Source: an uncultured Phycisphaerales bacterium (lineage in GTDB: Bacteria > Planctomycetota > Phycisphaerae > Sedimentisphaerales > Anaerobacaceae). Taken from it: 64,000 nt of DNA. The notes below the pieces were generated by a model. The model made no database searches, had not been told where the DNA came from, and saw only the letters and a list, made by a program, of their open reading frames with translations. Position 1 is the stretch's first letter. The number at the start of each line of letters is the position of its first letter. Where the stretch lies: contig OY970359.1 in the NCBI GenBank assembly GCA_963718665.1, positions 2,272,001 to 2,336,000 on the forward strand, written 5' to 3'. Positions 16,837 to 53,511 of the stretch are shown one piece after another. The position numbers and the translations under genes are program-made.

Positions 16837-19353
16837 ATGAAAAGAACAGCGTTAATCATTTCAGCTTTGTCATTAATAATTATTTCCACTGACGCATTCG
16901 CAGCCAAACTTGTCTGGCTCAAAGTTGTTGACAATAACTACATTATGGCCCAATTCAAAGACGGGGATGCATGTTTTTTAGACAATGCGCAGGGGCAATA
17001 TGCCTATATGGGTGATCATTTCTCGGGTTGGGATTGGGTGGTGAGTTACGGAAGCGCACTGAACTTAACAAATGCCACCGCGACCGCTAACTGGGTCATA
17101 ACATCAGCCAGTGATGCGAATTACGGCTCAACCGGCCTGAATCCGACAAACTGCTATCGTAAATCAAAACTCAATGGTGCGTCTGAAGGTAACTGGGGCA
17201 GCTACGACTGGATTTATACATATACCATGGAACACAATATTTATTTGAAATTGCCATATTCTCTTGTGCAGGGGGATAGCTATACCGTTACAATAAATGC
17301 AAATACAAATTCCGACACGCTGAGCCCGAACATTACTTTCGATATGTTCAACAGCCCATCGGAGGCGGTGCATGTAAATCTGGTTGGATATCTTAACGAT
17401 GCCAGCACAAAAGCCGTCGATTTGTATATCTGGATGGGAGACGGCGGCGCGCGTGACTACTCGTCGTTTGTCGGTAAAAAGGTTTATATATACAACGTAA
17501 ATACCGGCGCCAGCCAGCAGGTGGGAACTGTTGCGCTTTGGAAAAACAGCGGCTCGGACGTAGGAGGTTATAACCTTACGATGTCAAATGTCTGGAAAGC
17601 TGATTTTACCGGCTTTAATACTCCGGGGACATACCGCATCGCAATAGAAGGAGTGGGGTGCAGCGAAAATTTCGAGATTAAAAAATACGCTTATTTTGAG
17701 CCGTTCAGGGTCAGTACAATCGGCTATTTTTATATGCGTATCGGCCAGGAAACTAATTATCCCGGGATGCCCGTTCCCCGCCAGCCCCTTTTTATTCCCG
17801 GTGTATCGCCGGCAAGTACGATAGTTTATATAACTAATATGTCACCTCTTAACTCGAGCTGGAGTGATGGTTTTTGGGACAATCCATCCGCAATAGCCCC
17901 TTATGTGACAGGCGCCCAGAACAACAACGCCTATGGGGGACACTCCGATGCAACGGACTGGGACAGGAATCAGGGGCATATTTCAAACATTTATGACATG
18001 CTGCTGCCCTATTTTCTTACCGACGGCAATTTGAATGATGATAACCTGCAAATAGCTGAAAGCGGCAACGGCATTCCTGATATCCTGGATGAAGCAAGAA
18101 ACGAGGTTGATTTCTGGCTTAACTTGCGCGATGGAAACGGATACAGTTACGGACTTACTAATCCTACCAGCGAAACCACTCCGATTCTTTACCAGGCGGG
18201 AACCACGCCGATATCAGCATGGGCAAGTGCCGCAAACGCGGCAATGCTGGCTAATTGCTTTATGCTCGCGGGATTGAATGATTTGAGGGATACGTACACA
18301 AATGCCGCAGTAACAGCTTACAATTACGCCTCAAACCTGCCCGACCAGATGCTTAGTACAACGCTGGGTATCGGTGATGTAACAATCAGGGGCAAAGACC
18401 TGAAAATGACGGCTGCAGCGTTTCTCTACAATGTGACCGGAAATACCGCTTATGAAGACATGGTCAATTCACTGAGCGAAGTTACATCAAGCACCTCGAC
18501 GATATGTAATGATTCGAGTTATGATCAACTTTGGGCAACTGCCGCCTATCTCAAAACCAAACAAACTGTTCATTATCCGACTTTATTCAGCAATATGAAG
18601 GCATCCATTATTAATGAAGCTAAAAATCAGGAAGCAAATTATTCTAACTCCCGGCCAACGCGCAGGGCTACGGACAATAACACAGGATACTTTAAGACCG
18701 AACAGAACGTGCAAAGGTGTATAGTTGCCCATGCGGTTGCCGACAGTAATTCGGATAAAACATTATTCGAAAATGCGATGGTACTGGAAGCTGACTGGGA
18801 GCTTGGGCGCAATTCCATGAATAGGATTATAATGACTACCGCCTGTACTAACCTGGCAAGCAAGCGAAGTATTGAAAATATGTACACTACCGGCAGAAAT
18901 GACGGCTACCCCGGTCTGCACCCCGGACATACACCCTATTTGAATACCGACGACTGGGATTCTTCGAGTACAGGTATGACTGGGAATAAGCCGAGCAGGT
19001 TGACTGCTCTATGTTACCCCGCTTACGGGACGACGTCCACTACCGGCTGGCCGAAAGCGGAAGGTTATTTCAATGATAGATATGTATGGGCCCATTCGGA
19101 ATTTACGCCGCAACAGACGATGCGGGGCAAAGCGGCCCTCTACGGCTATTTGTATGGTTTATATAAACTACGCGCTGATTTTGACGGCGATTCAAACGTG
19201 GACATGGCGGATTTGGCTGTCTTTGCCAGTTCCTGGTTAAAAGTCCCCGGCAATGCGGGCTACGATTCGCGTGCAAATCTTTACGTGGATTCGTCCGGCA
19301 TAGTGGACTTGCGTGATTTTGCTGTCTTCGCGAATGAATGGGGCGGAAACTAG
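16837..19353 (+). CDS. secreted glycoside hydrolase family 9 with Ig-like N-domain and dockerin-like C-terminus
   Basis: Signal peptide, VHVNLVGY, GGHSDATDWD, ESGNGIPDILDEA, LGRN, SEFT; C-terminal duplicated ADFDGDSNVDMADL / DSSGIVDLRDF. Confidence 0.85.
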   Translation: MKRTALIISALSLIIISTDAFAAKLVWLKVVDNNYIMAQFKDGDACFLDNAQGQYAYMGDHFSGWDWVVSYGSALNLTNATATANWVITSASDANYGSTGLNPTNCYRKSKLNGASEGNWGSYDWIYTYTMEHNIYLKLPYSLVQGDSYTVTINANTNSDTLSPNITFDMFNSPSEAVHVNLVGYLNDASTKAVDLYIWMGDGGARDYSSFVGKKVYIYNVNTGASQQVGTVALWKNSGSDVGGYNLTMSNVWKADFTGFNTPGTYRIAIEGVGCSENFEIKKYAYFEPFRVSTIGYFYMRIGQETNYPGMPVPRQPLFIPGVSPASTIVYITNMSPLNSSWSDGFWDNPSAIAPYVTGAQNNNAYGGHSDATDWDRNQGHISNIYDMLLPYFLTDGNLNDDNLQIAESGNGIPDILDEARNEVDFWLNLRDGNGYSYGLTNPTSETTPILYQAGTTPISAWASAANAAMLANCFMLAGLNDLRDTYTNAAVTAYNYASNLPDQMLSTTLGIGDVTIRGKDLKMTAAAFLYNVTGNTAYEDMVNSLSEVTSSTSTICNDSSYDQLWATAAYLKTKQTVHYPTLFSNMKASIINEAKNQEANYSNSRPTRRATDNNTGYFKTEQNVQRCIVAHAVADSNSDKTLFENAMVLEADWELGRNSMNRIIMTTACTNLASKRSIENMYTTGRNDGYPGLHPGHTPYLNTDDWDSSSTGMTGNKPSRLTALCYPAYGTTSTTGWPKAEGYFNDRYVWAHSEFTPQQTMRGKAALYGYLYGLYKLRADFDGDSNVDMADLAVFASSWLKVPGNAGYDSRANLYVDSSGIVDLRDFAVFANEWGGN

Positions 19354-23306: not shown

Positions 23307-24269
23307 TCAGCCGACTTGTCTTCGCTGGAATAACGCCACCGCCAGTGCTAATATACCTCCCGCATAGCAAATCGCGTATATAGCGGTAATCAGCACATAT
23401 TTGATGGGCAGTGTGCTTCCCTCAACAATAGCGTCGCTTATCCAGAAGACCTGAAGATTAGGAATGGCGAAATAGCATATTTTTGCCCAGAGGTGGGTTT
23501 TGGCGAGGGCACCGAAAGCCCAGTCAGAGACAAGGCCCAGAAGGAAGACGCCTACGCAGGCCGAGAGAGTTACCACGATATTGAACCGGCAGGACAGGGC
23601 TACCGCTAATGCCGCGATTATAACCGCCGCCAGAAAGAGCAGAACCGAGCCATAAGTATCAACCGCGTTAATATTGTTATTAGCAGGGTTGAACTTCCAG
23701 TCGCGGTCGAAGAAAATCAGGAAAATCAGCGCAATTGTGCCCAGGCCAGCCAGTAAAACCATAGCTGTTGAGGTGGCCTTCCAGTCATAAGTATAGTTAA
23801 AGAAAGCAGTTAGAAGGCAGGTAAGAACGAGAATGGTCCCTCCGGCTGCTAATACGGTATAGTCGTTGTTGGAATCAACGTTTTCCAGAACGCCGTTCCT
23901 TATCGCCATTATCAGTGCTAAGGTACAGATGTAATGGGCCATAGCGACAGCCCCGGTAACTCCCAGGAATTTGGCTAAAATAAATATGGGACGTTGCACG
24001 GGCTTGCTTAAAACGGTCATAATGGTTTTATTCTCGATTTCCTCCGCCACAGCCCCTGAAGCGGAGAAAATTGCTATGAACAAGCTTGCTATGAAAAGCG
24101 TAGATAAGCCCAATTCGCGCAAAAGCTTATTGTCGTCATCCAGTGTGTACATCGAGATTGCCGGACTGACGAAAAACAGCAGCAGGGCGGCGATGATAAT
24201 TATCGCATAGACCGGCTGGCGTATGGTTTCTATGAAGGTATTTTTTGCTATTGTAAATAACTTTGTCAT
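23307..24269 (-). CDS. ABC-2 type transporter permease
   Basis: IAKNTF.E.IRQP, EIENKT...VLSKPV.R..FILAKFLG, about 8 TM segments, F..RQVG end. Confidence 0.85.
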   Translation of the reverse strand: MTKLFTIAKNTFIETIRQPVYAIIIIAALLLFFVSPAISMYTLDDDNKLLRELGLSTLFIASLFIAIFSASGAVAEEIENKTIMTVLSKPVQRPIFILAKFLGVTGAVAMAHYICTLALIMAIRNGVLENVDSNNDYTVLAAGGTILVLTCLLTAFFNYTYDWKATSTAMVLLAGLGTIALIFLIFFDRDWKFNPANNNINAVDTYGSVLLFLAAVIIAALAVALSCRFNIVVTLSACVGVFLLGLVSDWAFGALAKTHLWAKICYFAIPNLQVFWISDAIVEGSTLPIKYVLITAIYAICYAGGILALAVALFQRRQVG

Positions 24270-24454
24270 TCTCAACGACCTTTCTGGAAATCACGGTTTT
24301 TCAACGTCTTTTGAGTTTTAGGCAAGGTTTTTTGCCTAATTTTGGCGATATATTCTTATATGTTATAAAAACCGGCTTGTAAATAGCCGGGAAATACTAT
24401 ATCTATATGCCCTTTGCTTTTAGGGGTTCGTTAGAAACTTTAGGAATTTGATAA

Positions 24455-26518
24455 ATGACAACATCATCAAGACCGGCAAAGCTTGCTGCAATTGTGTCGC
24501 TGATAATCAGCGTCATCTTCTTTGTCATTACGATTCTTATCGGCAGATGGAGCGGTTTTGTATCCGTCTATTCAGAGAGTTTTGTTCCGCTTGGTTCGGC
24601 TTTAATCTGGCTGGTTTTGCTTATCCAGTTCCATCAGCGAGCCCTTGCCGAGCAGGAAAAGCTCGATATGAGCGAGCTTGTCGGCGAACACAGGGCAGAT
24701 AAAATCTTTCAGCAGAAAGGCGAGCAGGCACAGCTGTTCGCAGTCGCCCAAAAGCGTCTTGCGATACTTGAAAGGTGGTTCCTGCCGATTTTCTCATTTC
24801 TTATCGCCGCCTATCAGGCGGCCATAGGCCTGTATCTGCTCAGGGGTGTTTCGGATTCGAACCCGGCTATCGGCCAACAGCCGCTGTTGTGCGCGGTTTG
24901 TATGGTCGCCATTGCGTTTGTGAGTTTTCTGATGTCGCGTTACGCGACCGGGATGTCAAGGCGGCCGGAATGGAAACCGTTGCGGGCGGGAGGTAGTTTC
25001 CTGCTCAGCTCGGCGATTTTGTCATTTGCACTGGCGATAGCGCTTGCGCTGGTTCAGTTTAAATTAATCACCGTAATCAGGGTGATTGACTATTTGATTC
25101 CAATCCTGCTTATCATCCTTGGCGTCGAGAATCTGCTTAACGTTATATTTGATATCTATCGTCCTCGCCTGACTGGTCAATACAGCAGGGCGGCGTTTGA
25201 CAGCCGGCTGCTTGGGCTGGTCAACGAACCGGGCGAAATACTTCATACTGCCACAGGCGCAATCGATTATCAATTCGGATTCAAAGTTTCCCAGACATGG
25301 TTTTACAAACTTCTCGAAAAAGCCGTTGTGCCACTCTTTTTCTTCGGCGCTATTACGCTGTATCTGCTTAGCTGCGTCATCGTTATTAATCCGAATGAAC
25401 AGGGGGTAATCGAACACTTCGGTAATCCTAAAGACGCCAAAGGCAATGTCTGGCTGGTCGGCCCGGGCATCCATTTCAAAAGGCCCTGGCCTATTGATAT
25501 CGTTCGAATATACCCCACGAGCGATATAAAGGAACTGCAAATCGGCTACGTGCCGAAAACAGACCCCAAAACAGGGCAGATAATTCGCGAACCGTTGCTA
25601 TGGGGCAAGGACCATTACAAGGAAGAATACAACATCCTTGTTGCGAGCCGTCTCGGCACGGAGAAAAGTTCGCAGGGGGCGGTGCCGGTAAGTTTGCTCA
25701 AGGCAAATATCCCCGTGCATTACTGTGTCAAAGATATTTACGCGTTTCTTTATAACTATGACAATCCGGAGAGGCGACTCGAAGATATATGTTACCGCGA
25801 ACTTGCGAGGTTTGCCGCGAGCTCAACTATTGAGGTTGACGATGAGGTTGCTTTGCAGACCAGCTTGCTTGGCGCAGGCAGGTCACAGGCCAAGCAGGTT
25901 CTGACGCAAAATATCCAGGCAGCCGCTGACAAGGCGGGTCTTGGGGTCGAGATTGTTTTTGTGGGCCTGCAGGGGATACATCCGCCTACACAGGTTGCCG
26001 CCGACTATGAAAAGGTTATAGGCGCGATTCAGAAAAAACAGGCGATAATTCTCCGGGCGGAGGGGGAGCGCAATCTTACCCTTAGCACGCTGGCCGGTTC
26101 GGTCGAGGGGGCATCCGACCTTTACGTTCTGGCATCGGATTATCAAAAGGCAAGGCAGGAAAATAACCGCCAGCAGACCGATGAGATTGCCGGCCGGCTG
26201 GATAAGGCGTTTGGCCAGGCGGACGGCGATATATTCTGCATGCTGCGGGAGGCCCAGAGTTACAGGTTTGAAAAGGCGACTATCGCCCGCGCCACCGGCG
26301 AACGCTTCGACAGCCAGGTAAAAGCATACAGGGCTGCGCCGGAAATTTACAAACGCCAGCAGCGTCTTATCGCGCTGGAGGAAACGCTCAAACCAATCAG
26401 GAAATATGTTATTGTCGCCGACCCGAATGACGCGGAGACATTTATTGTTGACCTTAAGGAAAAATTAACGCCGAGTTTGTATGACATCGGCGGTGTTCAG
26501 GAGAGCAGTTCACAATGA
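24455..26518 (+). CDS. HflK-like SPFH protein with a large N-terminal multi-TM extension
   Basis: About 7 hydrophobic segments, then GPGIHFKRPWPID, G.HPP..VA..YE.V, A.GE..RF..Q..AY..APE.Y. Confidence 0.8.
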   Translation: MTTSSRPAKLAAIVSLIISVIFFVITILIGRWSGFVSVYSESFVPLGSALIWLVLLIQFHQRALAEQEKLDMSELVGEHRADKIFQQKGEQAQLFAVAQKRLAILERWFLPIFSFLIAAYQAAIGLYLLRGVSDSNPAIGQQPLLCAVCMVAIAFVSFLMSRYATGMSRRPEWKPLRAGGSFLLSSAILSFALAIALALVQFKLITVIRVIDYLIPILLIILGVENLLNVIFDIYRPRLTGQYSRAAFDSRLLGLVNEPGEILHTATGAIDYQFGFKVSQTWFYKLLEKAVVPLFFFGAITLYLLSCVIVINPNEQGVIEHFGNPKDAKGNVWLVGPGIHFKRPWPIDIVRIYPTSDIKELQIGYVPKTDPKTGQIIREPLLWGKDHYKEEYNILVASRLGTEKSSQGAVPVSLLKANIPVHYCVKDIYAFLYNYDNPERRLEDICYRELARFAASSTIEVDDEVALQTSLLGAGRSQAKQVLTQNIQAAADKAGLGVEIVFVGLQGIHPPTQVAADYEKVIGAIQKKQAIILRAEGERNLTLSTLAGSVEGASDLYVLASDYQKARQENNRQQTDEIAGRLDKAFGQADGDIFCMLREAQSYRFEKATIARATGERFDSQVKAYRAAPEIYKRQQRLIALEETLKPIRKYVIVADPNDAETFIVDLKEKLTPSLYDIGGVQESSSQ

Positions 26519-27408
26519 AAAATATAACAATAACCATCTTTATCGTTCTGCTTTTTGTCATTTTGGCTCTTGTATTCACGATGTTCCAGGTGCGAGAGAC
26601 CGAATCGGCACTGGTGATGACCTTCGGCAAGGCCACGCGGCAGATAACCGAGCCGGGTTTGTATTTCAAATGGCCTCCGCCAATCGAAATGGTTCAGAAG
26701 TTCGATTCGCGGTCGAGGGGTCTTGTGGCTGAGATAGGCGAGACGCCCACGAAAGGGGCGGTGCCGATTATTGTCAACACGTTTATCGTCTGGCGTGTTG
26801 CCGAGCCGCTTGCGTTTTTTAACGCGGTCGGGACCATTTCGGAAGCCGAGAACAAGCTGATTACCCAGATAAGCGACACTCAGAACAAGGTAATAGGCAG
26901 GCACGATTTCTCCGAATTTGTCAACAGCGACCCTACAAAAATAAAGCTCGATGAAATCGAAAAGGAGATGTTGGCTGAGATTCAGAAGGCCGTGCGAAGC
27001 GACTATGGGATTGAAATCAAGGCGATTGGCATCAGGCAGCTTAAAATCAGCGAAGACGTCAGCAAGGACGTGTTTGAGCGGATGAGGGCTGAGCGGAATC
27101 GCAGGACCGAGGCGACAATTGCCGAGGGCAATGCCGCATCCAAGAAAATTGTTACGGACGCTCTTTCAATGCAGACCGAGCTGCTCGCGGCCGCTGAGGC
27201 CAGGGCCAAGGCCATTCGCGCACAGGGCGACGCCGAGGCCGCCCAGTATTATAAGCTGCTCGAACAGGACCCGCAGCTTGCTATGTTCCTGCGTGATATC
27301 GATGCGCTCAAAAAGATACTCGAACAAAGAGCGACGGTTGTTATAAGCGCGGATACCGAGCCGTTCAAACTGCTCAGGCAGATGCCGGACCTGAAACCGA
27401 AAGAATAA
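26515..27408 (+). CDS. hflC: HflC-like SPFH protein
   Basis: FQVRETE...V.TFGK, EPGLYFKWP.PI, VFERMRAER, IRAQGDAEAA; ATGA overlap with the upstream gene. Confidence 0.88.
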   Translation: MKNITITIFIVLLFVILALVFTMFQVRETESALVMTFGKATRQITEPGLYFKWPPPIEMVQKFDSRSRGLVAEIGETPTKGAVPIIVNTFIVWRVAEPLAFFNAVGTISEAENKLITQISDTQNKVIGRHDFSEFVNSDPTKIKLDEIEKEMLAEIQKAVRSDYGIEIKAIGIRQLKISEDVSKDVFERMRAERNRRTEATIAEGNAASKKIVTDALSMQTELLAAAEARAKAIRAQGDAEAAQYYKLLEQDPQLAMFLRDIDALKKILEQRATVVISADTEPFKLLRQMPDLKPKE

Positions 27409-27441
27409 TTGCTGTTTGTTTCATAGGCGGATTTGAAAGAT

Positions 27442-28749
27442 ATGACGGAAGAACACGGACACCATCACGAGCACGAACATAATCACGCGACCCCGGATGA
27501 CGCAGGCCAGGTGCGGCAGGCGGACCCCGGCTATGACTACCTGTCGGGGGCGTTGAAGGTCAGTTTCGCCGTTCTCAAGGTCATAATGGTCATACTGGTG
27601 ATACTGTTTTTGTTTTCCGGTATCCGGACGGTAGGGCCGGGCGAACGAGCGATTGTTCTGCGGTTCGGCAAAATCAGCGGAGTCGGCGAGGCACGGCTTC
27701 TTGGTCCGGGATTGAAGCTGCTTTTGCCCTATCCGATTCACGAAATCGTTCGAGTTCCTGTCGAGAAAAAGGTTAACCTGGCAATCAATTCGTTCTGGTA
27801 TTATCAGAAACCCGGCGATGAGATGGGTGACGCGGCCAACCAAAAATCATACGCGTTGCCGACGCTTAATCCCCTTAGCGACGGCTATTGTTTGGTAAGG
27901 GGCGAAAAACAGGAGGGGGCCGCAGCCGTCTCCGAAGGCAGCGATTATAATATCCTTCACTGCAAGTGGGTTTTGACCTATCAGATTACCGATGCGGAAA
28001 GATTCTACAAGCACTGCTATGTGCAGGACGACCATCTTTCCGCCGGACAGAATTACTCGGACATCATTGAGCAAAATATAAACCCGATGCTGGAGAATGT
28101 TTTCTCCGACGCGGTTGTCGCAACAATGGTAAATTACACAATCGAAGAGGCAATGTTTGAAAAGGTGGCTTCGGTTACGGATAGGGTCAAGGAGCGTCTT
28201 CAAAACAAGCTCAACGCCTTAGACAGCGGCATTAAAGTTGTTTCGGTTCAAATCCGCGATATAACCTGGCCCAGGCAGGTAGGGGCTGCCTTCCAGGCGT
28301 CTTTAACCGCCACCCAGGATAAGCAAAAGGCAATCAGCGAGGCAAAGCTAAACGCGGAAAAGATTCTCAATGAGACCGGCGGCCCGATTGCCGGCGAGCT
28401 GCTTGCCTCTCTGCATGATAGTTCCTATGACAAACAAAAACAGGAGCAGTTGTGGGGACAGGTTGCCGGCAGGGCACAGGAACAAATAGCCGATTCACGC
28501 GGCTATCGGACAAAGGTCGTCGAGGACGCCAGAGCGAACGCCGAGTACCTGCAAAGGATACTTCCGGAATATCGAAAGTATCCCAAGCTTGTCATACAGA
28601 GGGTCTATCAGGACGCGATTGAGCAGGTTCTTCGCGACGCCGATGAGAAGACGGTAATTGAGCCCGCGCAGCACGGCAAAGCAACCGATGTCAGGGTTCT
28701 CATCAACAGGGACCCTGGGATAAAGCCGAAATCCGAACCCGGAAAATAA
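27442..28749 (+). CDS. HflK-like SPFH protein with His-rich N-terminus
   Basis: EEHGHHHEHEHNH, one TM, AIVLRFGK, PYPIHEIV, P.QV..AF, LPEY.K.P. Confidence 0.82.
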   Translation: MTEEHGHHHEHEHNHATPDDAGQVRQADPGYDYLSGALKVSFAVLKVIMVILVILFLFSGIRTVGPGERAIVLRFGKISGVGEARLLGPGLKLLLPYPIHEIVRVPVEKKVNLAINSFWYYQKPGDEMGDAANQKSYALPTLNPLSDGYCLVRGEKQEGAAAVSEGSDYNILHCKWVLTYQITDAERFYKHCYVQDDHLSAGQNYSDIIEQNINPMLENVFSDAVVATMVNYTIEEAMFEKVASVTDRVKERLQNKLNALDSGIKVVSVQIRDITWPRQVGAAFQASLTATQDKQKAISEAKLNAEKILNETGGPIAGELLASLHDSSYDKQKQEQLWGQVAGRAQEQIADSRGYRTKVVEDARANAEYLQRILPEYRKYPKLVIQRVYQDAIEQVLRDADEKTVIEPAQHGKATDVRVLINRDPGIKPKSEPGK

Positions 28750-28778
28750 ACTTAGTGAGGAATCCTGAGAGATAAATA

Positions 28779-30713
28779 ATGGCCCACGAACATCTGCATT
28801 TTAAGGACGATATAGCAGTCGAGCATACGCACGGCAAACAGGTTCGCGTCAGTTTGGCGCTGCTGGGGACGCTGGCAGGGGGGACGCTGCTGCTAAGCCA
28901 CTATGTAAGCAAATGGTTTGTTTACGGCCCCGATGCCTTCCAGACCGAGATTCTCGCATTTGCGGGCGCAATCCTGCTTGGCTCGCCTATCATCTGGCAC
29001 GCAATTAAAAGTTTAGTGCACAAAGAAGCCCATATGGATGAGCTTGTGGCCCTTGCGATACTTGCCGCCATTGCCACGCGGCAATATCCTGCCGCCTGTG
29101 TAGTTGCGTTCTTTATGTTACTTAGCGAACTGGTCGAGAGCAGAACGGCCCTTGGTGCGAGGGCATCGATTGAATCGCTCATTAAACTCACCCCTCAAAA
29201 GGCAAATCAACTGCATCCCGACGGCAGCGAAACCGAAGTTATGGTCAGCCAGATTAAGCCAGGTGATATTGTTCGGGTAAGGCCCGGCGATAATATCCCG
29301 GTCGATGGCGACGTCGTAAAGGGTTTAAGCTCGGTCAATGAGGCCACAATTACCGGCGAATCGCTGCCCGTTGACAAAGTTCCCGGTATGCAGGTTTTCG
29401 CGGGCACAAGCAATCTTACGGGTGCTCTCGATATTACCGTTACCAAGGCGGGCAAAGATACCACCTTAGGCAAGGTCCAGTCGCTGATTTTGCAGGCCGA
29501 GCATACCAAGATACCGATTATGCGGATTATCGACCGCTATGTTAAATGGTACACCCCGACCGTTCTTATGATTGCAGGTATTGTCCTGTTCTTCACGGGC
29601 AATATCAACTATGCCATTACCATTCTTGTAATATCCTGTCCTTGTTCATTGATTTTGGCGACGCCCAGCGCGATGGTTGCGGCGATATCCGCTGCTGCCC
29701 GCCTTGGCATACTCGTCAAGAACGTTGCCGACCTCGAAGCCGCGGGCAAAATCACTGCGATGGTCTTCGACAAGACGGGAACCGTAACGACCGGCCGATT
29801 ATATGTAACGAAACTCACTCCTGCAAATGGCGTTGAGCCGTCAACACTGCTGTCGCTGGCTTCCTCCGCTGAAAAAATGAGCAAACATCCCGCGGCAAGA
29901 GCTTTGCTTGAGGTCGCCAAACAGGCAAATCTCATTTTGCCCGAAGTGGATAATTTTCAGGAAACACCCGGCAAAGGCGTTTCCGCCAAAGTAGCGGGCA
30001 GCAGGGTAATCGTCGGCAGAGATTCTTTCCTCAGGGAAAACCAGATTAATATGTCAAATGTTACTCTGCCGTCTCTGCACGAGGAGCAGGGTTTCAGCAC
30101 ACTTTTTGTTGCTTTGGACCATAATTGCATTGGGTGGATAGGCCTTCAGGATAAAACCAGGCCCGAAGCGAAGGAGGCCGTAGCAGACCTTTTCGCACTT
30201 GGCGTCAAACGTGTAACTATGCTCACGGGCGACAGGGACGAAGTCGCAGGGCGAGTCGCGGCAGAACTCGGCTGCACCGATTACAAGGCGCATTGCCTGC
30301 CCCAGGATAAACTGGCTATTGTGGAAAAAATCAAAAAAGACGGGCACACCGTCGTTGTCGTGGGCGACGGCATAAACGATGCCCCCGCGCTTGCCGCGGG
30401 CGACCTCGGCATAGCGATGGGAGCGGCCGGTTCCGACGTAGCAATCAACTCCGCCTCAATCGCGCTGTTGAGCGACGACCTCAAACGACTGCCCGCACTG
30501 GTACAGCTTTCACGCAGAACGCGTTTTGTTATCAACTCAAACCTTGCCTTTGGCGTCAGCTTTATAATCGTGGGCATATCGCTGTCGTTTTTGATTCTGC
30601 CGACAACGGCGGCGTTCCTGCATTTCGCAAGCTCTCTTGTCGTTGTCTTCAACAGCGCCCGCTTAGTTCGTCACGGCGAAGAACTTCAGCACCATACGGG
30701 TGATGCTGCGTAG
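28779..30713 (+). CDS. heavy-metal P1B-type ATPase
   Basis: TGES, SCPC, DKTGT, HP, MLTGD, GDGINDAPAL; short His-rich N-terminus. Confidence 0.93.
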   Translation: MAHEHLHFKDDIAVEHTHGKQVRVSLALLGTLAGGTLLLSHYVSKWFVYGPDAFQTEILAFAGAILLGSPIIWHAIKSLVHKEAHMDELVALAILAAIATRQYPAACVVAFFMLLSELVESRTALGARASIESLIKLTPQKANQLHPDGSETEVMVSQIKPGDIVRVRPGDNIPVDGDVVKGLSSVNEATITGESLPVDKVPGMQVFAGTSNLTGALDITVTKAGKDTTLGKVQSLILQAEHTKIPIMRIIDRYVKWYTPTVLMIAGIVLFFTGNINYAITILVISCPCSLILATPSAMVAAISAAARLGILVKNVADLEAAGKITAMVFDKTGTVTTGRLYVTKLTPANGVEPSTLLSLASSAEKMSKHPAARALLEVAKQANLILPEVDNFQETPGKGVSAKVAGSRVIVGRDSFLRENQINMSNVTLPSLHEEQGFSTLFVALDHNCIGWIGLQDKTRPEAKEAVADLFALGVKRVTMLTGDRDEVAGRVAAELGCTDYKAHCLPQDKLAIVEKIKKDGHTVVVVGDGINDAPALAAGDLGIAMGAAGSDVAINSASIALLSDDLKRLPALVQLSRRTRFVINSNLAFGVSFIIVGISLSFLILPTTAAFLHFASSLVVVFNSARLVRHGEELQHHTGDAA

Positions 30714-30751
30714 AATACCTATATACAGGCCTGACGGGATTAGCTGAAATT

Positions 30752-31963
30752 ATGGAATATGCGATTGAAACATTTTCTCTTACAAAGATTTTTTCCGACT
30801 GGTGGGGCCGCAGCAGGGTTATAGCCGTTGATGACCTTAATCTGAAGGTTCGCCCCAATGAGGTTTATGGTTTTCTCGGCCCTAACGGCTCAGGCAAAAC
30901 AACCACGCTCAAAATGCTCCTCGGGCTGCTTCATCCCACAAAAGGAAAGGCAATCGTTCTCGGGGGCGACGCCACCGACCCGCAAATCAATCGCAGAATC
31001 GGTTTTTTGCCTGAAGAGTCGTATCTTTATAAATACCTGACGGCCCGCGAAACGCTCGATTTTTACGGCCAGCTGTTCAAACTGCCCGCGAAAGTCCGCA
31101 GGATGCGTATCGAGGCGCTGCTGGATATGGTCGGCCTGAAGGCCGTCGCCAACAGGACCATCGGGACATTTTCAAAGGGTATGGCAAGAAGAATCGGTCT
31201 TGCCCAGGCCCTTATAAATGACCCTGAGCTGCTTATTCTCGATGAACCAACCACAGGCCTTGATCCCATCGGCACAAGACAAATCAAAGACCTTATCCTC
31301 GAACTCGCCAAACGCGGCAAGACGATTCTGCTTTGCAGTCACCTTCTTGCCGACGTCGAGGACGTATGTAACAGAATCGCGATTCTTTATGGTGGCAAGA
31401 TTCAGGCGGAAGGCGACGTCCGCGAATTGCTGCGGCACTCCGATAAGACCGAAATTCTGACCGGGCGTTTAAGTCCGGCGGTAATCGAGAAAATAAAGCA
31501 GACGCTTGCCGAAGAGCACGCGGAATACACCATCGGCTCGCCGATAGACAAGCTCGAAACGTTCTTTATCAATATTGTGGCCCGGGCACAACGGCAGGCC
31601 GTCCCGACAAGCGGTGCGGAGAGCAAGACGCAGATTAGCAATTTTCTTTCCGCCGGGATTAATGACCGTGCGAGCCGAGAAGCGATACTTAATCAGCTCG
31701 TTTCCGCCTCTGACGAGCGACCGGCTGTTACTGATACGCAGCAGGTCAAATCTCAACCGGCACCGTTGTCGCCGGCTGACGAAAATCTGCTCAAAGAGCT
31801 GACCGAACAGACCGATTCAAAACCGGTTGTTATCCAGCCGACACAAACCAAACCCGCGCCGGCGCAATCCGACCAGCCGAATAAGAGCGTTCTCGACGAA
31901 TTAACGGGCCGGTCTAATGCGGATACAAAGAACGCTCAATCCGGAGATTCCACAAATGCGTAG
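30752..31963 (+). CDS. ABC transporter ATP-binding protein with low-complexity C-terminal tail
   Basis: GPNGSGKT, FSKGM, LILDEP, SH. Confidence 0.93.
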   Translation: MEYAIETFSLTKIFSDWWGRSRVIAVDDLNLKVRPNEVYGFLGPNGSGKTTTLKMLLGLLHPTKGKAIVLGGDATDPQINRRIGFLPEESYLYKYLTARETLDFYGQLFKLPAKVRRMRIEALLDMVGLKAVANRTIGTFSKGMARRIGLAQALINDPELLILDEPTTGLDPIGTRQIKDLILELAKRGKTILLCSHLLADVEDVCNRIAILYGGKIQAEGDVRELLRHSDKTEILTGRLSPAVIEKIKQTLAEEHAEYTIGSPIDKLETFFINIVARAQRQAVPTSGAESKTQISNFLSAGINDRASREAILNQLVSASDERPAVTDTQQVKSQPAPLSPADENLLKELTEQTDSKPVVIQPTQTKPAPAQSDQPNKSVLDELTGRSNADTKNAQSGDSTNA

Positions 31964-33333
31964 CATCTGGGCCGTTGCTGTCAATATGATAAAGCAGGCC
32001 CTGCGTCTCAAAATTGCCGCGGTCTTTATAGTTCTGCTGCTTGTGCTGCTGCCGGTAATGGGATTGACTATGACCGGTGACGGCACGGTAAAGGGGCGTA
32101 TGCAGGCGTTCGTCAGCTATGGTATGTCACTGACGGCGTTTTTGCTGTCGATGCTTACCATTTTCACAACCGCGTATTCGCTCACAAGCGAAGTAAAAGA
32201 CAAGCAGATTTATACCGTTTTAACAAAGCCGATTCGGCGGTTTCAGTTTGTGCTCGGCAAATTGCTCGGAATTGTTATTTTAGACGCGGGTTTGCTTGCT
32301 CTTTTTTCCGTTATCATTTACGGCATCACCATTTTATTGCCGACGGTTCTGCGCAGACGAAGCCCAGATGACCCAGATTCGGGACGAGTTTTTTACCGCC
32401 AGGGCGTCGGTAAAGCCCGAAGAGCCGGATATTTCGCAGGAGCTTGCAGAGGCGTATAAAAAGCTTAAGCAGAATGGCGAGGTTCCTGCCGGTGTGGATG
32501 AAAATCCAGTCGCTCGTCATAATTATATGAATGAGCTTGCTCGCCGTATCGGGCTTAGAAGGCGGGCCGCCGCGGTGGGCGAAGAGCTGCTCATGGAATT
32601 CGATAACGTTAAGCCCAAGGAGCCCAACCAGAATTTATTCGTGAGATTCAAATACGATGTTGCAGTCAATCCTCAGGACCTTTCGATATACAGTAAATGG
32701 GTTGTCGGTGACGTTCGCCAGCTTCGCCTGGCGGCCAATCTGGATACGCCGATATATTCACTGGAACGAAAAGATGTTATACGCACGTTTCGTGAATTTT
32801 CAGTTCCTGCCGACGCGGTTGCGGGCGATGGCTATCTTGCCGTGGCGTTTCTTAATGTTCCTCTTAATAATACGGTTGTTATTTTCCCGTTCGAGGACGG
32901 TCTTGAGCTTCTTTACAAAGCCGACACTTTTACCGCCAATTTTATCAGGGCGGTACTGTTAATTTTTGTTTGGCTCGTTTTTCTTTCCGCGTTCGCCGTT
33001 TTTGCGGGGTCATTTTTATCGTTTCCAGTTGCCATATTGCTTTGCCTGGCCGTGTTTACTATGGCCAATATGACCGGATACATCGGTGAATCCTTTAACG
33101 TTGTCGGCGGCAATGTCAGCCCGGTATATACGTGGTTTCTTCAGCCGATACTTTCGCTTTTGCCGCATTTCGACAAGTTTGACCCTTCTCAATTTTTAGT
33201 TCCGGCCCGGTTGTTGAGCTGGTCTTTGCTTGCCTGGCTTGGCTTTTCGACGCTTTGTATCAGAGCCCTGCTGCTGGTGATTTTGTCGCTGGTGATTTTC
33301 ACTTACCGCGAAATTGCAAAAGTTATCGTGTAA
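31956..33333 (+). pseudogene. ABC-2 permease with extracytoplasmic domain, split by one frameshift near 32343 (real lesion or sequence error)
   Basis: The first frame carries the EVKDKQIYTVLTKPIRR...LGK motif; a +1 frame carries the soluble domain, the C-terminal TMs and the REIAKVIV end. Confidence 0.8.
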
Positions 33334-33409
33334 CGTTATTATTGGCCCGTGCCGGAGGCATGAAAACATCCGCCGGGCATCCGCCGTAGATTATTAAGTC
33401 AATACAATT

Positions 33410-35230
33410 ATGCGTTTACGTGACAAACTGATTATTGTTGTATGCGTTGTGCTGATGGTTGTCCTGCTGACCGTTGCGGGCGACCGTCTGGATTATATAA
33501 ATTCACAGCGGGTTGAAATGAAGCTGATAAGCAACGAGCCGCTGCAGAATGCACCGCCTTCGCTGGCTTTTGCGACGGTTGCGATGGGGGCGTTCAGGGG
33601 GCTGGTGGTTGATATCCTTTGGATGCGGGCTGATAAGCTCAAGGAGCAGGGCCAATTTTTCGATGCAAAGCAGCTTGCCGAATGGATTACCGTTCTTCAG
33701 CCGCGTTTTTCACAGGTCTGGGCGTTTCAGGCGTGGAATATGGCCTACAATATCTCTGTGGCTATTCCCGCTGAACAGGCGGACCAGCGATGGCAGTGGG
33801 TGAAAAACGGCTATGAGCTTTTGCGCGACAAGGGCATACCCCTCAATCCTAAATCAATCGGCTTGTATCGTGAGCTTGGCAGAATCTTCCAGCACAAAAT
33901 AGGCAGCAACAGCGACGATGATAATAGATACTACAAATTACAGCTTGCTCTTTCGATTGAACCGTTGCTCGGCCCGGCTGATAATGCCTGGTTTGAATCG
34001 CTTGCTAAAGCTCCTGCCGAGTGGAGTCAGATTGCCGCCGACGCGAACATTGCGCCGTTTATCGCTGCTCTGAAGGCCGCCGACAAGAACTTCGAGGATG
34101 ATTCGCGATTTGCGGGCAATTACCTTTCTCTCCGGCAAAATCCAAACAGATTCGCACCTGCCGCTTTTAGGGTAATCGAGCGGTTCAGAGACACAGCAAT
34201 ACTTCGTGATTTCGATGTTTTCGCAAAGGCATGGCAGCTTCGAAACGTCTGGAAACTTGACCCCGTTCTTATGCTCGAATTAAACCGCATGTACGGCCCG
34301 ACAGATTTCAATGACCCTAATTATCACTACCCGCTCGATTGGCGGCATCCGGACGTTCACGCAATTTACTGGACGGTTAAGGGGCTTCGCGTAGCGGGCA
34401 GAAAAAATGCCGTTAAGACGGGCAGGGGAGAGTACCCGGTTGACGAAATCAATACCGACCGGATTGTTTCAAGCAGTTTGCAGAACCTGTTCCGGTATGG
34501 AAAAATCTTTATCTACGATATGAACGAAAATCCGGTCTCACCACAGGGCGGCGAGCAAGTCGCTGCCACTGGGCCGACAAAAGATATATTTCTGCGTGCC
34601 GATTTCAGGATGTTCGATTCTTACAACAAGGCAATAACGGAGATTATACACAAATACAGCGACCCAAACGACAAATGGGATGATTCGCATATGGTTCAGC
34701 ACCGCAATATGCTTACCAATGCCCTGACAATGTTTTACCAGGCGGGTCACAGGCAGAAGGCGCAGAAGATATACGATTATGTCAGAGGGCTGTATCCTCG
34801 TCCGGAATTTAACGATCCGGCCGTCGAATCTTACATCATCCAGCAGATACGCAAGGACCTCAAGACCATCACAATCACCAAGGCGATGGATACGATTATG
34901 CCGATGTTTCGTGAGGCGTATTTCAGATATGCCCTGCGCGATGACGACGCTTCCTATGCCATCGAAAAAATGGCCGAAGACGTATATAATGTTTATACTA
35001 AACAATATGGCGATGAGGCACGGCTTCGTTTGCCGGAGTTAAGAGTAATGAAATTTCTTGCGTTTAGGGATTTCTTTTCCGACGAGGAATATCCACTAAC
35101 AATGCGTCAGACCCTCCTTGCCCGGATAAAAATCGAGCAGCCGAAGCTTGCTGAACAATTCTCACAGATTGAAGAACAGTTGATTCGGGAATCGCAGCAG
35201 CAACAGCAGCAACAACCAAACTCGCAATGA
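33410..35230 (+). CDS. membrane-anchored hypothetical protein (606 aa, predicted helical)
   Basis: Long ORF with N-terminal TM; GAFRGL..DILW.RA and LQP.F..VW.FQAWNMAYNISV block; poly-Gln tail. Confidence 0.75.
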   Translation: MRLRDKLIIVVCVVLMVVLLTVAGDRLDYINSQRVEMKLISNEPLQNAPPSLAFATVAMGAFRGLVVDILWMRADKLKEQGQFFDAKQLAEWITVLQPRFSQVWAFQAWNMAYNISVAIPAEQADQRWQWVKNGYELLRDKGIPLNPKSIGLYRELGRIFQHKIGSNSDDDNRYYKLQLALSIEPLLGPADNAWFESLAKAPAEWSQIAADANIAPFIAALKAADKNFEDDSRFAGNYLSLRQNPNRFAPAAFRVIERFRDTAILRDFDVFAKAWQLRNVWKLDPVLMLELNRMYGPTDFNDPNYHYPLDWRHPDVHAIYWTVKGLRVAGRKNAVKTGRGEYPVDEINTDRIVSSSLQNLFRYGKIFIYDMNENPVSPQGGEQVAATGPTKDIFLRADFRMFDSYNKAITEIIHKYSDPNDKWDDSHMVQHRNMLTNALTMFYQAGHRQKAQKIYDYVRGLYPRPEFNDPAVESYIIQQIRKDLKTITITKAMDTIMPMFREAYFRYALRDDDASYAIEKMAEDVYNVYTKQYGDEARLRLPELRVMKFLAFRDFFSDEEYPLTMRQTLLARIKIEQPKLAEQFSQIEEQLIRESQQQQQQQPNSQ

Positions 35231-37425
35231 TGTTCCCCTCGACTAATAAACGTGATGACGCATTTGCTTCCGAACTGACCGCTTCCCAGCAAAAGGCAGT
35301 ATTTCACCGCGATGGTCCCTTGCTTGTCATCGCGGGGCCGGGCAGCGGCAAGACCCGCGTCATAACCTGCCGCATTGCCGCTCTCGTCAGTTCAGGTGTT
35401 CCCGCTTATAATATCTGCGCCATCACTTTTACCAATAAGGCCGCCGAAGAAATGCGCCAACGTGCCGTCGCCATTGGCTCATCCGCCGGCGCACACATCA
35501 GCACTTTTCACTCTCTGTGCGTTCGCATTCTCCGCAGATATTCCGAAGTTGCTGGCATAACCCCAAACTTCAGTATATACGACGATTCCGACCAGTCCAA
35601 ATGCATAAAACAGGCAATCGTTGACTGCAATCTTAATACTACCGATTTTTCGCCCGCGCGAACGCTCGACGCGATTTCTACTTTGAAAAACAAGCTCATT
35701 GACGCCGATACCTTTGAAAAGGAAGCAGACGATTTCTTCTCAAAAACGCTGTCAAAAATTTATTCCCGCTATCAGCAAATCCTCAAGGACCTTAACGCCG
35801 TTGATTTCGATGATTTGCTTATGAAAGCGGCCTTTCTGCTCGAAAACAATCCCGATGTTCGTTCGGAACTCGGCAATCGGTATAAATATCTTCTCATTGA
35901 TGAATACCAGGACACCAACCACGCTCAATATCGAATCGCAAAGGCGCTTGCTTCCTCGCACAACAATATCTGTGCGACGGGCGACCCGGACCAGTCAATC
36001 TACCGCTGGCGAGGAGCTGATATTCGCAATATCCTCGATTTTGAGCGCGACTGGCCCAATGCCGTGGTTGTTCGTCTCGAAGAAAATTTTCGCTCTGCTC
36101 CCTGCATTCTTGAAGTTGCCGACCAGCTTATCGCCAATAACCGGAGCCGAAAGGAAAAACGCCTTATCGCGACAAAACCGCCCGCGGGCAAAGTCGTTAT
36201 TGAACCGTATAAGGATGAAGTCGAGGAGGCCATCGGCGTTGCGGAAAATATCAGGCGATTGGTTGACGAAGGCGTGCCCCTTTCCAATATAGCTATTTTT
36301 TATCGCGTCAATGCCCAAAGCCGGACAATCGAAGAGGCCTTCATAAGGAGCAAAATCCCATATCAAATAGTTCGCGGCGTCGAATTCTACAATCGAAAGG
36401 AAATACGTGATTTGCTCGCCTATCTCAAAGTTTTCGTCAATCCCGCCGACAAAGTCGCGCTTCTGCGCATCATCAATACCCCCGTCCGCGGCATAGGCAA
36501 AACCACCATCGACAAACTTCAAAACTTCGCCGCCCGCCGTAACATCGGCTTATATGAAGCGATCAAACACATTTCGAAAATTCTCAGCATTTCCAAAACT
36601 ACCGCCGCCAAACTCACCGCCTTTCTCGCGATGATAGAAGGTTTCAAAAAACAAGTCCCTCTCGATAATGGCGTTAGCCCAAATCATAAATCGAGTGTCG
36701 CTTCTCTGGCCGAACTTGTCTTCTCCGAATCCGGCCTCGAAAAATCCCTCGCCGCCGAAGGCGCAGAAGGCAAGGACGCTATTGCCAATATCGAGTCGCT
36801 TATCAGCGCAGCCGCTCGTTATGACCAAGAGACCGAAAACCCCTCCCTGATTGATTATCTCCAGCAAATCGCGTTGTTCAGCGACGCCGACGCGTATAAT
36901 GCTTCGGTTGAACGCGTTGCGCTTATGACGCTGCATTCCGCGAAAGGTCTCGAATTCGATACCGTCTTCATTGTTGGGGTCGAGGAAGGTTTGCTGCCTC
37001 ACGAAAGAAGCGCGGATAATGAAAATGAAACCGAAGAAGAACGCCGGCTTTTCTTCGTCGGCATAACCCGCGCAAAAGTCAACCTGTTTATCGCTTTTGC
37101 AAAATACCGCCAAATCAGGGGCCAGACCCTCCGCACCATACCTTCGCAATTTCTCTTCGAGCTTGGTCTCGCCTTTTCTGAATCTGCTTCTCAATCAGAA
37201 ATCAGAAATCATAAATCAGAAATAGAGAATGTTAAATCCGAAATCCGGAGCACACAATCGGCAGCTCCTTTTCATAAAGGAGATATTGTTGTGCATAAGA
37301 AATTCGGCATAGGCACTGTGAAGGATTTCGCGGATATGGGCGACAACTCCGTTGTTATCGTTGCGTTCAACACCGGCCATACAAAATCCCTGATGCTCAA
37401 GTATGCAAAACTTGTGAAACTTTAA
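35227..37425 (+). CDS. pcrA: ATP-dependent DNA helicase UvrD/PcrA
   Basis: AGPGSGKT, TFTNKAA, DEYQDTN, GDPDQSIY.WRGA, MTLHSAKGLEF, EERRLFFVGITRA, C-terminal Tudor-like domain. Confidence 0.95.
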   Translation: MMFPSTNKRDDAFASELTASQQKAVFHRDGPLLVIAGPGSGKTRVITCRIAALVSSGVPAYNICAITFTNKAAEEMRQRAVAIGSSAGAHISTFHSLCVRILRRYSEVAGITPNFSIYDDSDQSKCIKQAIVDCNLNTTDFSPARTLDAISTLKNKLIDADTFEKEADDFFSKTLSKIYSRYQQILKDLNAVDFDDLLMKAAFLLENNPDVRSELGNRYKYLLIDEYQDTNHAQYRIAKALASSHNNICATGDPDQSIYRWRGADIRNILDFERDWPNAVVVRLEENFRSAPCILEVADQLIANNRSRKEKRLIATKPPAGKVVIEPYKDEVEEAIGVAENIRRLVDEGVPLSNIAIFYRVNAQSRTIEEAFIRSKIPYQIVRGVEFYNRKEIRDLLAYLKVFVNPADKVALLRIINTPVRGIGKTTIDKLQNFAARRNIGLYEAIKHISKILSISKTTAAKLTAFLAMIEGFKKQVPLDNGVSPNHKSSVASLAELVFSESGLEKSLAAEGAEGKDAIANIESLISAAARYDQETENPSLIDYLQQIALFSDADAYNASVERVALMTLHSAKGLEFDTVFIVGVEEGLLPHERSADNENETEEERRLFFVGITRAKVNLFIAFAKYRQIRGQTLRTIPSQFLFELGLAFSESASQSEIRNHKSEIENVKSEIRSTQSAAPFHKGDIVVHKKFGIGTVKDFADMGDNSVVIVAFNTGHTKSLMLKYAKLVKL
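37193..37248 (+). repeat. degenerate heptamer tandem array inside the helicase linker
   Basis: 8 units: AATCAGA AATCAGA AATCATA AATCAGA AATAGAG AATGTTA AATCCGA AATCCGG. Confidence 0.85.
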
Positions 37426-52878: not shown

Positions 52879-53382
52879 ATGACTTCGCAGCCAACAAAGA
52901 CGCGACGGTCGAGCCACAGGGATATGCTTGATTTGTTTATTCAGAACTGCCGTCGCAACGGACTTAAGATGACGCCCCAGAGGACGGCGGTTTACAAAAC
53001 GCTGATTAAGTCAAAGGAGCATCCGTCGACTGAAATGGTCTGGGGGCAGGTCAGGCGTTTGTTCCCGGGTATCTCGCTGGATACGGTGAATCGTACGCTT
53101 TTGACGCTTGCCGAAATCGGCTTGGCTTCGGTTGTGGAAGGTTCGGGCGACGTGCGTCGTTATGACGGCGACCTTGATAATCACCAGCACTTCAAATGCG
53201 TAAAATGTAAAAAAGTTTTCGACTTTCACTATGAACCGTTTGATGATATAAAAGTGCCAGCGAGTATTGCGGCGAAATTTAAGATATTAAGAAAGACGGT
53301 ATATCTGGAGGGCATTTGTAACTCCTGCGGGGGCAAATCCAGGTATAATCCTTTAGCCACGGGAAATGGTGACCACAAATGA
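52879..53382 (+). CDS. perR: Fur-family regulator, PerR-like
   Basis: TPQR, HPS, ISLDTV.RTL, HQHFKC..C, C..C; heads a peroxide-defence cluster. Confidence 0.8.
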   Translation: MTSQPTKTRRSSHRDMLDLFIQNCRRNGLKMTPQRTAVYKTLIKSKEHPSTEMVWGQVRRLFPGISLDTVNRTLLTLAEIGLASVVEGSGDVRRYDGDLDNHQHFKCVKCKKVFDFHYEPFDDIKVPASIAAKFKILRKTVYLEGICNSCGGKSRYNPLATGNGDHK

Positions 53383-53398
53383 AAGCGGATACGAATTT

Positions 53399-53491
53399 GC
53401 AGACGTTATATTGGACGGTTTTTATGAAGCAATGATCATGATGGAGCAGGGCGCTCAATTCGGAAAGATTGTTTTGAAAATGCAAACTTGA
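53399..53491 (+). pseudogene. remnant resembling the C-terminus of an MDR/quinone oxidoreductase
   Basis: Reads ..LDGFYEAMIMMEQGAQFGKIVLKMQT*; GKIVL is the typical MDR terminal strand. Confidence 0.45.
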
Positions 53492-53511
53492 TTAATTTTA
53501 GGAGAACATAA

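Follow-up and report, generated by a model that had tools for sequence, protein, structure and literature searches.

An HflK/HflC-like trio tied to metal transporters in Phycisphaerae: a candidate SPFH cage for a P1B-type ATPase

What do bacterial SPFH cages enclose besides FtsH? HflK and HflC form a large cage around FtsH that encloses a patch of membrane, and here we describe a locus in which three proteins of this kind are linked to a metal pump. The locus (23307..35230) lies in a 64,000-nucleotide stretch of DNA from an uncultured Phycisphaerales bacterium, hereafter the window, which is C1:2272001-2336000 of a genome assembled as a single 2.61-Mb contig (94.6% complete); all locus coordinates are window positions. 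Its eight genes encode three SPFH proteins (K1, an HflC-like subunit and K2, together the trio), a P1B-type ATPase, an ATP-binding cassette (ABC) ATPase, two ABC-2-type permeases and an anchored protein resembling tetratricopeptide repeat (TPR) proteins. We propose, with a probability of about 0.5, that the trio forms an HflK/C-like cage for the metal pump, in which a disabled cation diffusion facilitator (CDF) domain of K1 serves as the anchor and periplasmic histidines form an outer metal site. If true, this would be a bacterial HflK/C-type cage with a transporter as its client instead of a protease, in a set of eight genes that carries no annotation as a system and is found almost throughout one class of Planctomycetota. 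The first-pass annotation of this DNA placed eight open reading frames (ORFs) here, seven co-oriented and one divergent permease; that arrangement is confirmed, and its labels agree with Pfam and NCBIfam. It also suggested that the cage corrals the pump together with an ABC exporter. The pump half of that idea gains from the ties of the trio to metal transporters (fusions, co-loss of ligands and linkage), and the ABC half is unproven: the trio and pump were lost three or more times while the ABC genes stayed, and export found no support.

The three SPFH proteins share the build of Escherichia coli HflK and HflC. K1 (24455..26518, plus strand; 687 amino acids, aa), the HflC-like subunit (26515..27408, plus strand; 297 aa) and K2 (27433..28749, plus strand; HflK-like) each combine a transmembrane (TM) segment, an SPFH domain and a coiled coil homologous to HflK/HflC, with seven, one and one hydrophobic segments, respectively; in K1 the Band_7 match spans 310-538. 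The ATGA overlap between K1 and the HflC-like gene that had been noted is seen at the junction. The K1 family profile matches E. coli HflK with E 1.3e-56, and the closest solved structures of the trio are E. coli HflK and HflC. The likeness to the E. coli cage (PDB 7vhp, 7vhq, 7wi3, 9cz2, 9paw) lies in the TM-SPFH-coiled-coil build, the K-C gene order and these best sequence and structure matches. The differences are that there are three subunits here and two there, that the trio is unlinked to hflX and ftsH, that K1 carries an N-terminal six-helix domain, and that K1 has periplasmic histidine motifs and an insertion, whereas E. coli HflK has R-P-P and no insertion. All three proteins also fall below the equivalog cut-offs: K1 and K2 score 84.9 and 130.5 bits against TIGR01933 (HflK; cut-off 159.4), and the HflC-like protein scores 132.7 bits against TIGR01932 (HflC; cut-off 134.4). 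We regard the trio as HflK/C-derived proteins that fail these cut-offs.

What is the N-terminal domain of K1? It comprises six helices (aa 1-240; 24455..25174, plus strand), and its likeness to the CDFs (FieF/YiiP, ZnT/SLC30) consists of a common fold and a colinear six-helix sequence match. The AlphaFold model of K1 (pLDDT 85) has SLC30A10 as its top VIA-align match (Z 15.9, rmsd 3.0, 179 residues aligned over model residues 10-244), followed by ZnT3, ZnT1, ZnT8, ZnT4 and ZnT7. A K1 profile that included true CDF sequences (5 of the 72 rows in the folded K1 alignment) matched the stand-alone CDF of the genome, and the K1 profiles were then rebuilt without those rows. Aligned with hhalign, 55 CDF-free K1 rows match the five CDF-HflK rows across 198 colinear columns with a probability of 98.3% (E 1.4e-14). 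When the five CDF-HflK rows serve as the profile, just two of the 6829 ORFs of the genome are matched, namely its stand-alone CDF (3.5e-21) and K1 (1.2e-07). By itself the CDF-free K1 profile reaches the stand-alone CDF only at E 0.37, so that K1 is tied to the CDFs by way of the CDF-HflK fusions and by its match in fold. The transport site is where the two groups part. The site A letters are H, D, H and D in all five true CDF-HflK fusions, while neither site A Asp is present in any of the other 67 K1 rows and the TM2 His is kept in 16 of these. In the K1 of the window all four metal ligands are replaced (Val44, Ser48, Phe182 and Ser186). K1 also differs from the CDFs in that no cytoplasmic metal-binding domain was detected in it, an SPFH subunit following instead. 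On this alignment and model, the K1 membrane domain is best described as CDF-derived and not as a CDF transporter.

The same N-terminal slot is occupied by other transporters in relatives. It holds an intact CDF in the five rows mentioned above and, across 15 regions examined for further fusions, a P1B ATPase of another lineage in five full-length ORFs and one cut ORF, and an ArsP permease in five ORFs. The CDF-fusion loci, which fall in three family codes, have no pump alongside, and the pump clade described below is found in none of five such genomes tested. A ZnuA-family gene lies near one CDF fusion (L130), and a ZIP zinc transporter lies directly upstream of three of the five ArsP fusions. 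The trio is thus wired to three unrelated metal-transporter families. A literature search, whose coverage left out most subscription papers, found no description of an HflK fused to a CDF. We note several further features of these fusions. Intact CDF-HflK fusions occur at L130, L131, L139, L142, L143, L144, L198 and L199, of which L139 lies directly behind yidC, and L130 and L142 beside M28 peptidases. The P1B-HflK fusions (L165-L169, L140) are about 980-1080 aa long, mostly carry H-Q-x-S-S in TM6 and have HflC and K2 next in line on contigs long enough to show them, and the ArsP_1-HflK fusions (L171-L175) are followed by HflC and a second HflK.

Which histidines could handle metal? The earlier annotation proposed that cytoplasmic His tracts hand metal over to the pump. 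The His-rich N-termini are real: K2 has seven His before its TM segment and the pump has six in its first 45 aa, which makes them two of only four genome ORFs with at least six His in that stretch (among 1469 mechanically called ORFs of at least 250 aa). The tails are variable across groups, however. At least four His precede the K2 TM segment in 10 of 67 close loci, 16 of 40 distant loci of the eight-gene type and none of 16 loci of the four-gene type, and His-rich pump N-termini occur in 50 of 56, 4 of 26 and 1 of 8 such loci, respectively, and in 3 of 4 plasmid copies. The recurrence of His tails in several lineages fits a metal context, yet such tails cannot be a core mechanism, and the hand-over proposal is not supported. 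The conserved histidines are periplasmic instead. K1 carries a W383-x3-H387 motif in its insertion and an H509-P-P motif (25601..25981, plus strand), a candidate metal site; His387 is present in 66 and His509 in 68 of the 72 rows, and K2, which has a single TM segment, carries His176 in 59 of 77. No His precedes PP in any of 17 short ordinary HflKs (18 loci, one of which could not be read). Both K1 motifs are kept in the P1B fusions and in plasmid K1s, and they are mostly absent from the ArsP fusions.

The scaffold and pump ligands appear to be lost together. In the order that contains genome G182, K1 and pump are both readable in 38 of 71 genomes; 20 of these keep the K1 His pair and the TM6 His of the pump, 18 lose all of them and none is mixed, even though the genes are often far apart. 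K2 His176 is kept in the three co-loss genomes checked. With the trait columns left out, the K1 tree and the pump tree each place two separate losses, one in a family and one in a genus. K1 is seen to have lost its His only in the company of pumps that lack the TM6 His, apart from L138, for which no pump turned up. The loss of scaffold metal ligands together with those of the pump suggests a cage made for the transporter instead of FtsH.

The pump itself (28779..30713, plus strand) is a P1B-type ATPase without an HMA domain that scores 555 bits against TIGR01525 (cut-off 346). It carries TGES at 192, C287-P-C289 in TM4, DKTGT at 331, HP at 370, GDGxND at 529, Asn588, and His615 in TM6. The TM5/TM6 signatures of the P1B-1 (CopA), P1B-2 (ZntA/CadA) and P1B-4 classes are YN with MxxSS, K with DxG, and SPC with HEG, respectively, and all are seen in our outgroup rows. 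The window pump has none of them; it has CPC, Asn588 and H-F-A-S-S, and it branches apart from those classes. In a tree of 55 rows (21 near-redundant rows of a 75-row set were left out), all 42 cassette pumps fall on one side of a branch with full support (100) in the Shimodaira-Hasegawa-like approximate likelihood ratio test, apart from the CopA-, ZntA- and P1B-4-like pumps of the same genomes, and they form a cassette-specific clade. As side observations, a Phycisphaerales-type P1B branch (L179-L183, L257-L286) has DKTGT and TGE intact with TM4 reduced to CPS, CPG, TPG or VPA and, in 18 genomes, no TM6 His either, and genomes G001, G104, G427, G437 and G443 each have two clade pumps, G437 also having two K1 genes.

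Is there a described counterpart? The order K-C-K followed by a P1B ATPase is also the layout of the Pseudomonas aeruginosa PA2439-hmtA cluster (PA2439-PA2434), where three HflK/HflC-family genes and the pump likewise share one operon. In the available portions of the P. aeruginosa papers, PA2439-PA2437 and hmtA (PA2435) are reported to rise 5.6- to 14-fold in a znuA mutant (PMC4542158), the cluster is up in Zn-depleted proteomes (PMC11761036), its SPFH genes rise when zinc is chelated (PMC9431628), and the PA2439 promoter is a binding site of Zur (PMC8531726). The literature presents HmtA as a Zn/Cu importer (PMC8456098), the evidence for import being overexpression that a review considers in need of confirmation (PMC10393844). 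The three SPFH genes have been named PaFlo5/6/7 (PA14_33070/33080/33110) and are patchy and probably transferred in a species that has a separate hflKC (PMC13086221). The main text of that paper, as available, contains neither 'hmtA' nor 'ATPase', and the available part of PMC2636767 contains neither 'ATPase' nor 'transporter'. In these portions of the literature the SPFH genes are treated as FtsH modulators or left unexplained, with no physical link to HmtA and no CDF domain mentioned. A four-gene K1-C-K2-pump core lacking the ABC genes is carried on plasmids of Paraburkholderia, Burkholderia, Rhizobium and Klebsiella (four of four records examined, of 11 found), and the window pump groups on a well-supported branch with pumps from Alpha-, Beta- and Gammaproteobacteria whose four-gene cassettes are identical in layout. 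The planctomycete cassette differs in its setting, inside a two-permease ABC/TPR operon and near-universal in its class, whereas the P. aeruginosa cluster is patchy and mobile. The earlier statement that no functional description of such a system exists thus needs qualifying: the system itself is undescribed in the literature found, but its four-gene core matches the zinc-starvation-induced hmtA cluster, with HmtA a reported Zn/Cu importer. Within the literature coverage given above, and among the matches listed, those for an HflK/HflC plus P-type ATPase operon were expression or genome reports by title, that for SPFH proteins with a P-type ATPase zinc cage was off topic, and those for SPFH proteins in Planctomycetes were general papers. 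On the Paraburkholderia plasmid (L081:70-7664), the cassette follows genes for a GTP-binding protein, a zinc ABC importer, a DUF2946 protein and a PCu(A)C copper chaperone.

We propose that K1, the HflC-like subunit and K2 assemble at the inner membrane, on its periplasmic side, into an HflK/C-type ring or cage of mixed subunits. The client of this cage would be a divalent-metal transporter, with FtsH either no client at all or not the sole one. Ancestrally that transporter would have been a CDF fused to K1. In the window lineage the CDF transport site would have been lost and the domain kept as a membrane anchor or docking module, with a dedicated P1B ATPase doing the pumping. K1 His387 and His509 together with K2 His176 may hold metal on the outer side of the pump, which would make the cage an enclosed space for metal in the periplasm, used when metal, most likely zinc, is scarce. 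The ABC ATPase, the two permeases and the TPR-like protein would form an envelope module distinct from the cage and of greater age. This module would have been in the operon from an early stage of its two-permease form; it probably takes part in the same process, but is able to function with no cage present. In which direction does metal move? CDFs and most P1B ATPases export and the ancestral fusion partner is a CDF, so delivery outward to periplasmic or exported metalloproteins is slightly favoured; uptake, which is nearly as probable, is favoured by the HmtA report and by the ZIP, ZnuA and zinc-ABC neighbours. The proposal bears on what bacterial SPFH cages hold and on the standing of HmtA as an 'importer' among exporting P1B ATPases, whose three upstream SPFH genes are not considered as partners in the available portions of those papers. 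The natural fusions, the pseudo-transporter domain and the matched ligand loss name residues and complexes for testing. There is also a eukaryotic parallel, as transporters are reported among the partners of the human stomatin SPFH cage (PMC13724742; PDB 9zd2).

Several observations weigh against the cage-for-a-pump proposal. It supposes a contact between K1 and the pump, and a complex prediction with pump aa 20-636 and K1 aa 1-320 scored 0.05, which decides neither way. The co-loss of ligands comes down to just two events, and on a single origin the trees differ: the K1 tree rejects it (approximately unbiased (AU) test, p 0.029), the pump tree does not (p 0.11). In the wider set, moreover, the pumps of loci L087, L106, L128, L132 and L135 lack the TM6 His while K1 keeps both of its His, so that pump loss does not imply K1 loss. 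Kinship to HmtA is probable, the cassette probably being of the hmtA type, but it is read from the layout and the proteobacterial plasmid copies and not from the PA2435 sequence; no P. aeruginosa copy of the pump or K1 was found among the plasmid matches or among the protein matches listed (120 of 3834). In P. aeruginosa, hmtA mRNA is reported not to be repressed by zinc (PMC8531726), and a triple SPFH mutant is reported to form about 20% less biofilm and to have slight phenotypes, under conditions without a metal test (PMC13086221). No Zur-like box was found at the planctomycete locus, a further difference from the P. aeruginosa cluster, and no conserved operator palindrome occurs in 75 close-relative intergenic regions, the best 6-bp inverted repeat being present in 11 of them. 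Three other findings, namely a genome with no second hflKC, ligand-less genomes that keep pump and trio, and a TM4 motif that varies, bear on two alternative explanations and are given with them.

Could the trio simply be the HflK/C partner of FtsH in this lineage, acting in membrane-protein quality control, with the pump and the ABC genes as co-regulated neighbours or FtsH substrates? The first-pass annotation correctly found neither ftsH nor hflX in the window: the sole genomic FtsH lies at C1:1789835, 0.5 Mb away, and hflX at C1:656015. A genome-wide search for a separate canonical hflKC, which the annotation had called for, found none; the four Band_7 genes are the trio and a lone 343-aa gene. 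One FtsH and no other HflK/HflC pair, in a genome of the stated completeness, speak for such a partnership, as do the best structural matches to E. coli HflK and HflC and the presence of K1, like that of a housekeeping gene, in every genome of one order; FtsH is itself a zinc enzyme. The contact residues speak the other way. E. coli HflK residues Arg141, Glu142 and Arg185 are reported to contact FtsH (PMC13220708), and they map to Lys359, Glu360 and Glu443 in K1 and to Val114, Asn115 and Glu221 in K2, positions that are variable in both families; this is a weak test, as the alignment is uncertain near the insertion and includes no distant true-HflK control. An insertion of about 40 residues lies directly behind the mapped contact site in K1, some genomes (for example G177) hold the cassette plus a short HflK-HflC pair, and the transporter fusions and the co-loss would be left without explanation. 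We consider an FtsH partnership quite unlikely as the whole account.

Alternatively, the ATPase may have drifted from metal transport, keeping its phosphorylation cycle but now powering or regulating an envelope machine of which it is a subunit, with metal binding ancestral and optional. There is a parallel in KdpB, which energises KdpA. In the 18 ligand-less genomes pump and trio are still present with DKTGT and TGES/TGEA intact, although zero or one Cys is left of CPC, so that metal handling is not common to all members; TM4 varies even in eight-gene loci (CPC, CPG, CPT, CPY and TPC), and the CDF site of K1 is itself dead. These points stand against the fact that the window pump and most eight-gene pumps keep CPC, Asn588 and His615, that ligand loss is confined to derived branches, and that the ABC-less relatives sit among zinc genes. 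Drift of this kind strikes us as improbable.

How far does the linkage reach? The closest relatives of the genome are Sedimentisphaerales metagenome-assembled genomes at 95-96% identity. Eighty close loci were collected, of which 49 were long enough to judge gene content, and 48 of the 49 have all eight genes in order. We dropped conservation within Sedimentisphaerales as functional evidence, because uvrD, and argA in most cases, stay in place there as well, and only distant loci count. A K1 search of 301 genomes of the phylum gave more distant long matches from which 60 loci were chosen by hand: 22 have all eight genes (nine family codes), 7 lack only the pump, 12 have the trio and pump only, 8 have the trio alone and 11 are partial, mostly short contigs. 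Position and strand of the pump and of permease 1 differ among the distant loci, where argA and uvrD are no longer neighbours. Where the pump is absent from the locus, it was found elsewhere in 9 of 10 genomes. K1s with a disabled CDF retain the pump: in the order of G182, all 71 genomes have K1 and 70 of them also the pump, often unlinked. The neighbourhood check that had been suggested thus came out in favour of the linkage, which goes far beyond chance and survives rearrangement.

We read the locus as two modules, the first being the trio with the P1B ATPase and the second the ABC ATPase, both permeases and the TPR-like protein. Homologs of the 606-aa TPR-like protein are present in 227 of the 301 phylum genomes, against about 70 with a long K1 (hand count). 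The trio is absent from all of 20 loci around TPR-like homologs; three of those genomes have K1 elsewhere, and one locus (L158) has a single unrelated SPFH gene nearby. In a tree of the ABC ATPase and the TPR-like protein, cassette-free two-permease modules are nested at three places among linked ones, and monophyly of the linked modules is rejected (AU p 2.7e-15). The nesting means that the link is old and that the cassette disappeared on three or more occasions while the ABC module stayed; the two-permease ABC lineage appears to have started out linked. The combination of ABC ATPase, one or more permeases and TPR-like anchored protein (L145-L164) is near-universal in Planctomycetota and occurs in short (about 270 aa) and long forms.

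Do all eight proteins form one machine, in which pump and ABC system both sit inside the cage, for example to load metal into a periplasmic client handled by the ABC and TPR-like proteins? The 22 intact distant loci, held together despite the moves of pump and permease 1, would be expected from such a machine, as would the seven loci that keep the trio inside the ABC operon after the pump left and the apparent ancestral linkage; the NosY-type automatic name of the permease cluster points the same way, though as a label only. It is unlikely, however, given that most of the 20 further loci have an ABC module without SPFH or pump genes, that TPR-like homologs far outnumber long K1s, that the ABC module survived at least three cassette losses, that ABC genes are missing from the proteobacterial cassettes and from many planctomycete ones, and that the His tails are not conserved. 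A broader and doubtful picture, though one we would rate a little above a single fixed machine, is a periplasmic metal-loading chamber in which the dead CDF docks the P1B ATPase, the cage histidines take the metal from the pump and the ABC/TPR arm feeds or releases client proteins; if so, Phycisphaerae and related PVC (Planctomycetes-Verrucomicrobia-Chlamydiae) bacteria would share it as a core machine of their envelope, rebuilt several times around CDF, ArsP and P1B transporters.

The proteins of the second module match known families only loosely. Permease 1 (23307..24275, minus strand; 322 aa from TTG, with an ATG at 24269) matches Pfam ABC2_membrane_5 at E 6e-07; it is divergent in this genome and co-oriented in other lineages, and it lies beside the ABC ATPase where the cassette is absent. 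The ABC ATPase (30752..31963, plus strand) is DrrA/GldA-like but below those cut-offs and has a C-terminal tail. Permease 2 (31956..33333, plus strand; about 459 aa) has a large extracytoplasmic loop and is a single ORF in relatives. The 606-aa protein (33410..35230, plus strand) is N-terminally anchored and all-helical and belongs to no named family. It has no Pfam match, with weak TPR_14 matches in 12 of 47 relatives, and its model (pLDDT 87) has generic TPR matches only (best Z 11.2), which ruled out a specific fold assignment. The Atlas clusters of the ABC-module proteins are from Planctomycetota and Verrucomicrobiota; that of the 606-aa protein has no name, and one permease cluster is automatically named as NosY type (multi-copper enzyme maturation), a label only. 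The combination of a DrrA-like ATPase, ABC-2 permeases and an anchored extracytoplasmic protein may also resemble Myxococcus PilG/PilH/PilI, Flavobacterium GldA/F/G and NosF/Y in overall build. PilGHI systems are treated in PMC6060248 and PMC3724824. The profile matches to GldA and GldF are weak and lie far below the cut-offs (TIGR03522, 194.9 against 402.6; TIGR03518, 17.9 against 288.5, relatives reaching up to 22.8), and a simple motif scan of 11-20 kb stretches found no prepilin-motif ORF in any of 20 cassette-free loci. With no pilin neighbours in those loci, a PilGHI/Xap identity for the ABC module was ruled out.

A few features of the gene models and surroundings remain to be described. 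Gaps between the co-oriented genes range from -8 to 76 bp. In the assembly, permease 2 is split into two frames by a 2-base deletion at 32350; the two bases are present in five close relatives by alignment and in short-read contigs of all four runs (X1, X2, X3 and X7), one of which may be from the source sample. A real or programmed frameshift was ruled out by the relatives and read contigs, and the split is an assembly error. The uvrD/pcrA helicase gene (35227-37425) is joined to the 606-aa gene by an ATGA overlap, so that tight packing alone gives no operon end; it is the downstream neighbour of that gene across Sedimentisphaerales, though not in wider lineages. The divergent promoter region (24276..24454) has the conserved non-palindromic blocks TTATA, TTGTAAA and TTTGTTC. 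A DtxR/Zur-like palindrome there, TTAGGC..GCCTAA, was dropped as it is found in only 3 of 75 regions, and a sigma-70 scan of the region stayed at chance level. The genome holds three Fur-family genes. The one at 52879 was considered as a regulator of the locus and rejected, as it belongs to an oxidative-stress cluster (52879-56058) in which a Fur/PerR-family regulator is followed by rubrerythrin, peroxiredoxin and a flavodiiron protein. Finally, upstream of the locus, 16837-19353 encodes an 838-aa secreted glycoside-hydrolase-like protein whose only match is CelD_N and whose C-terminus looks dockerin-like by eye.

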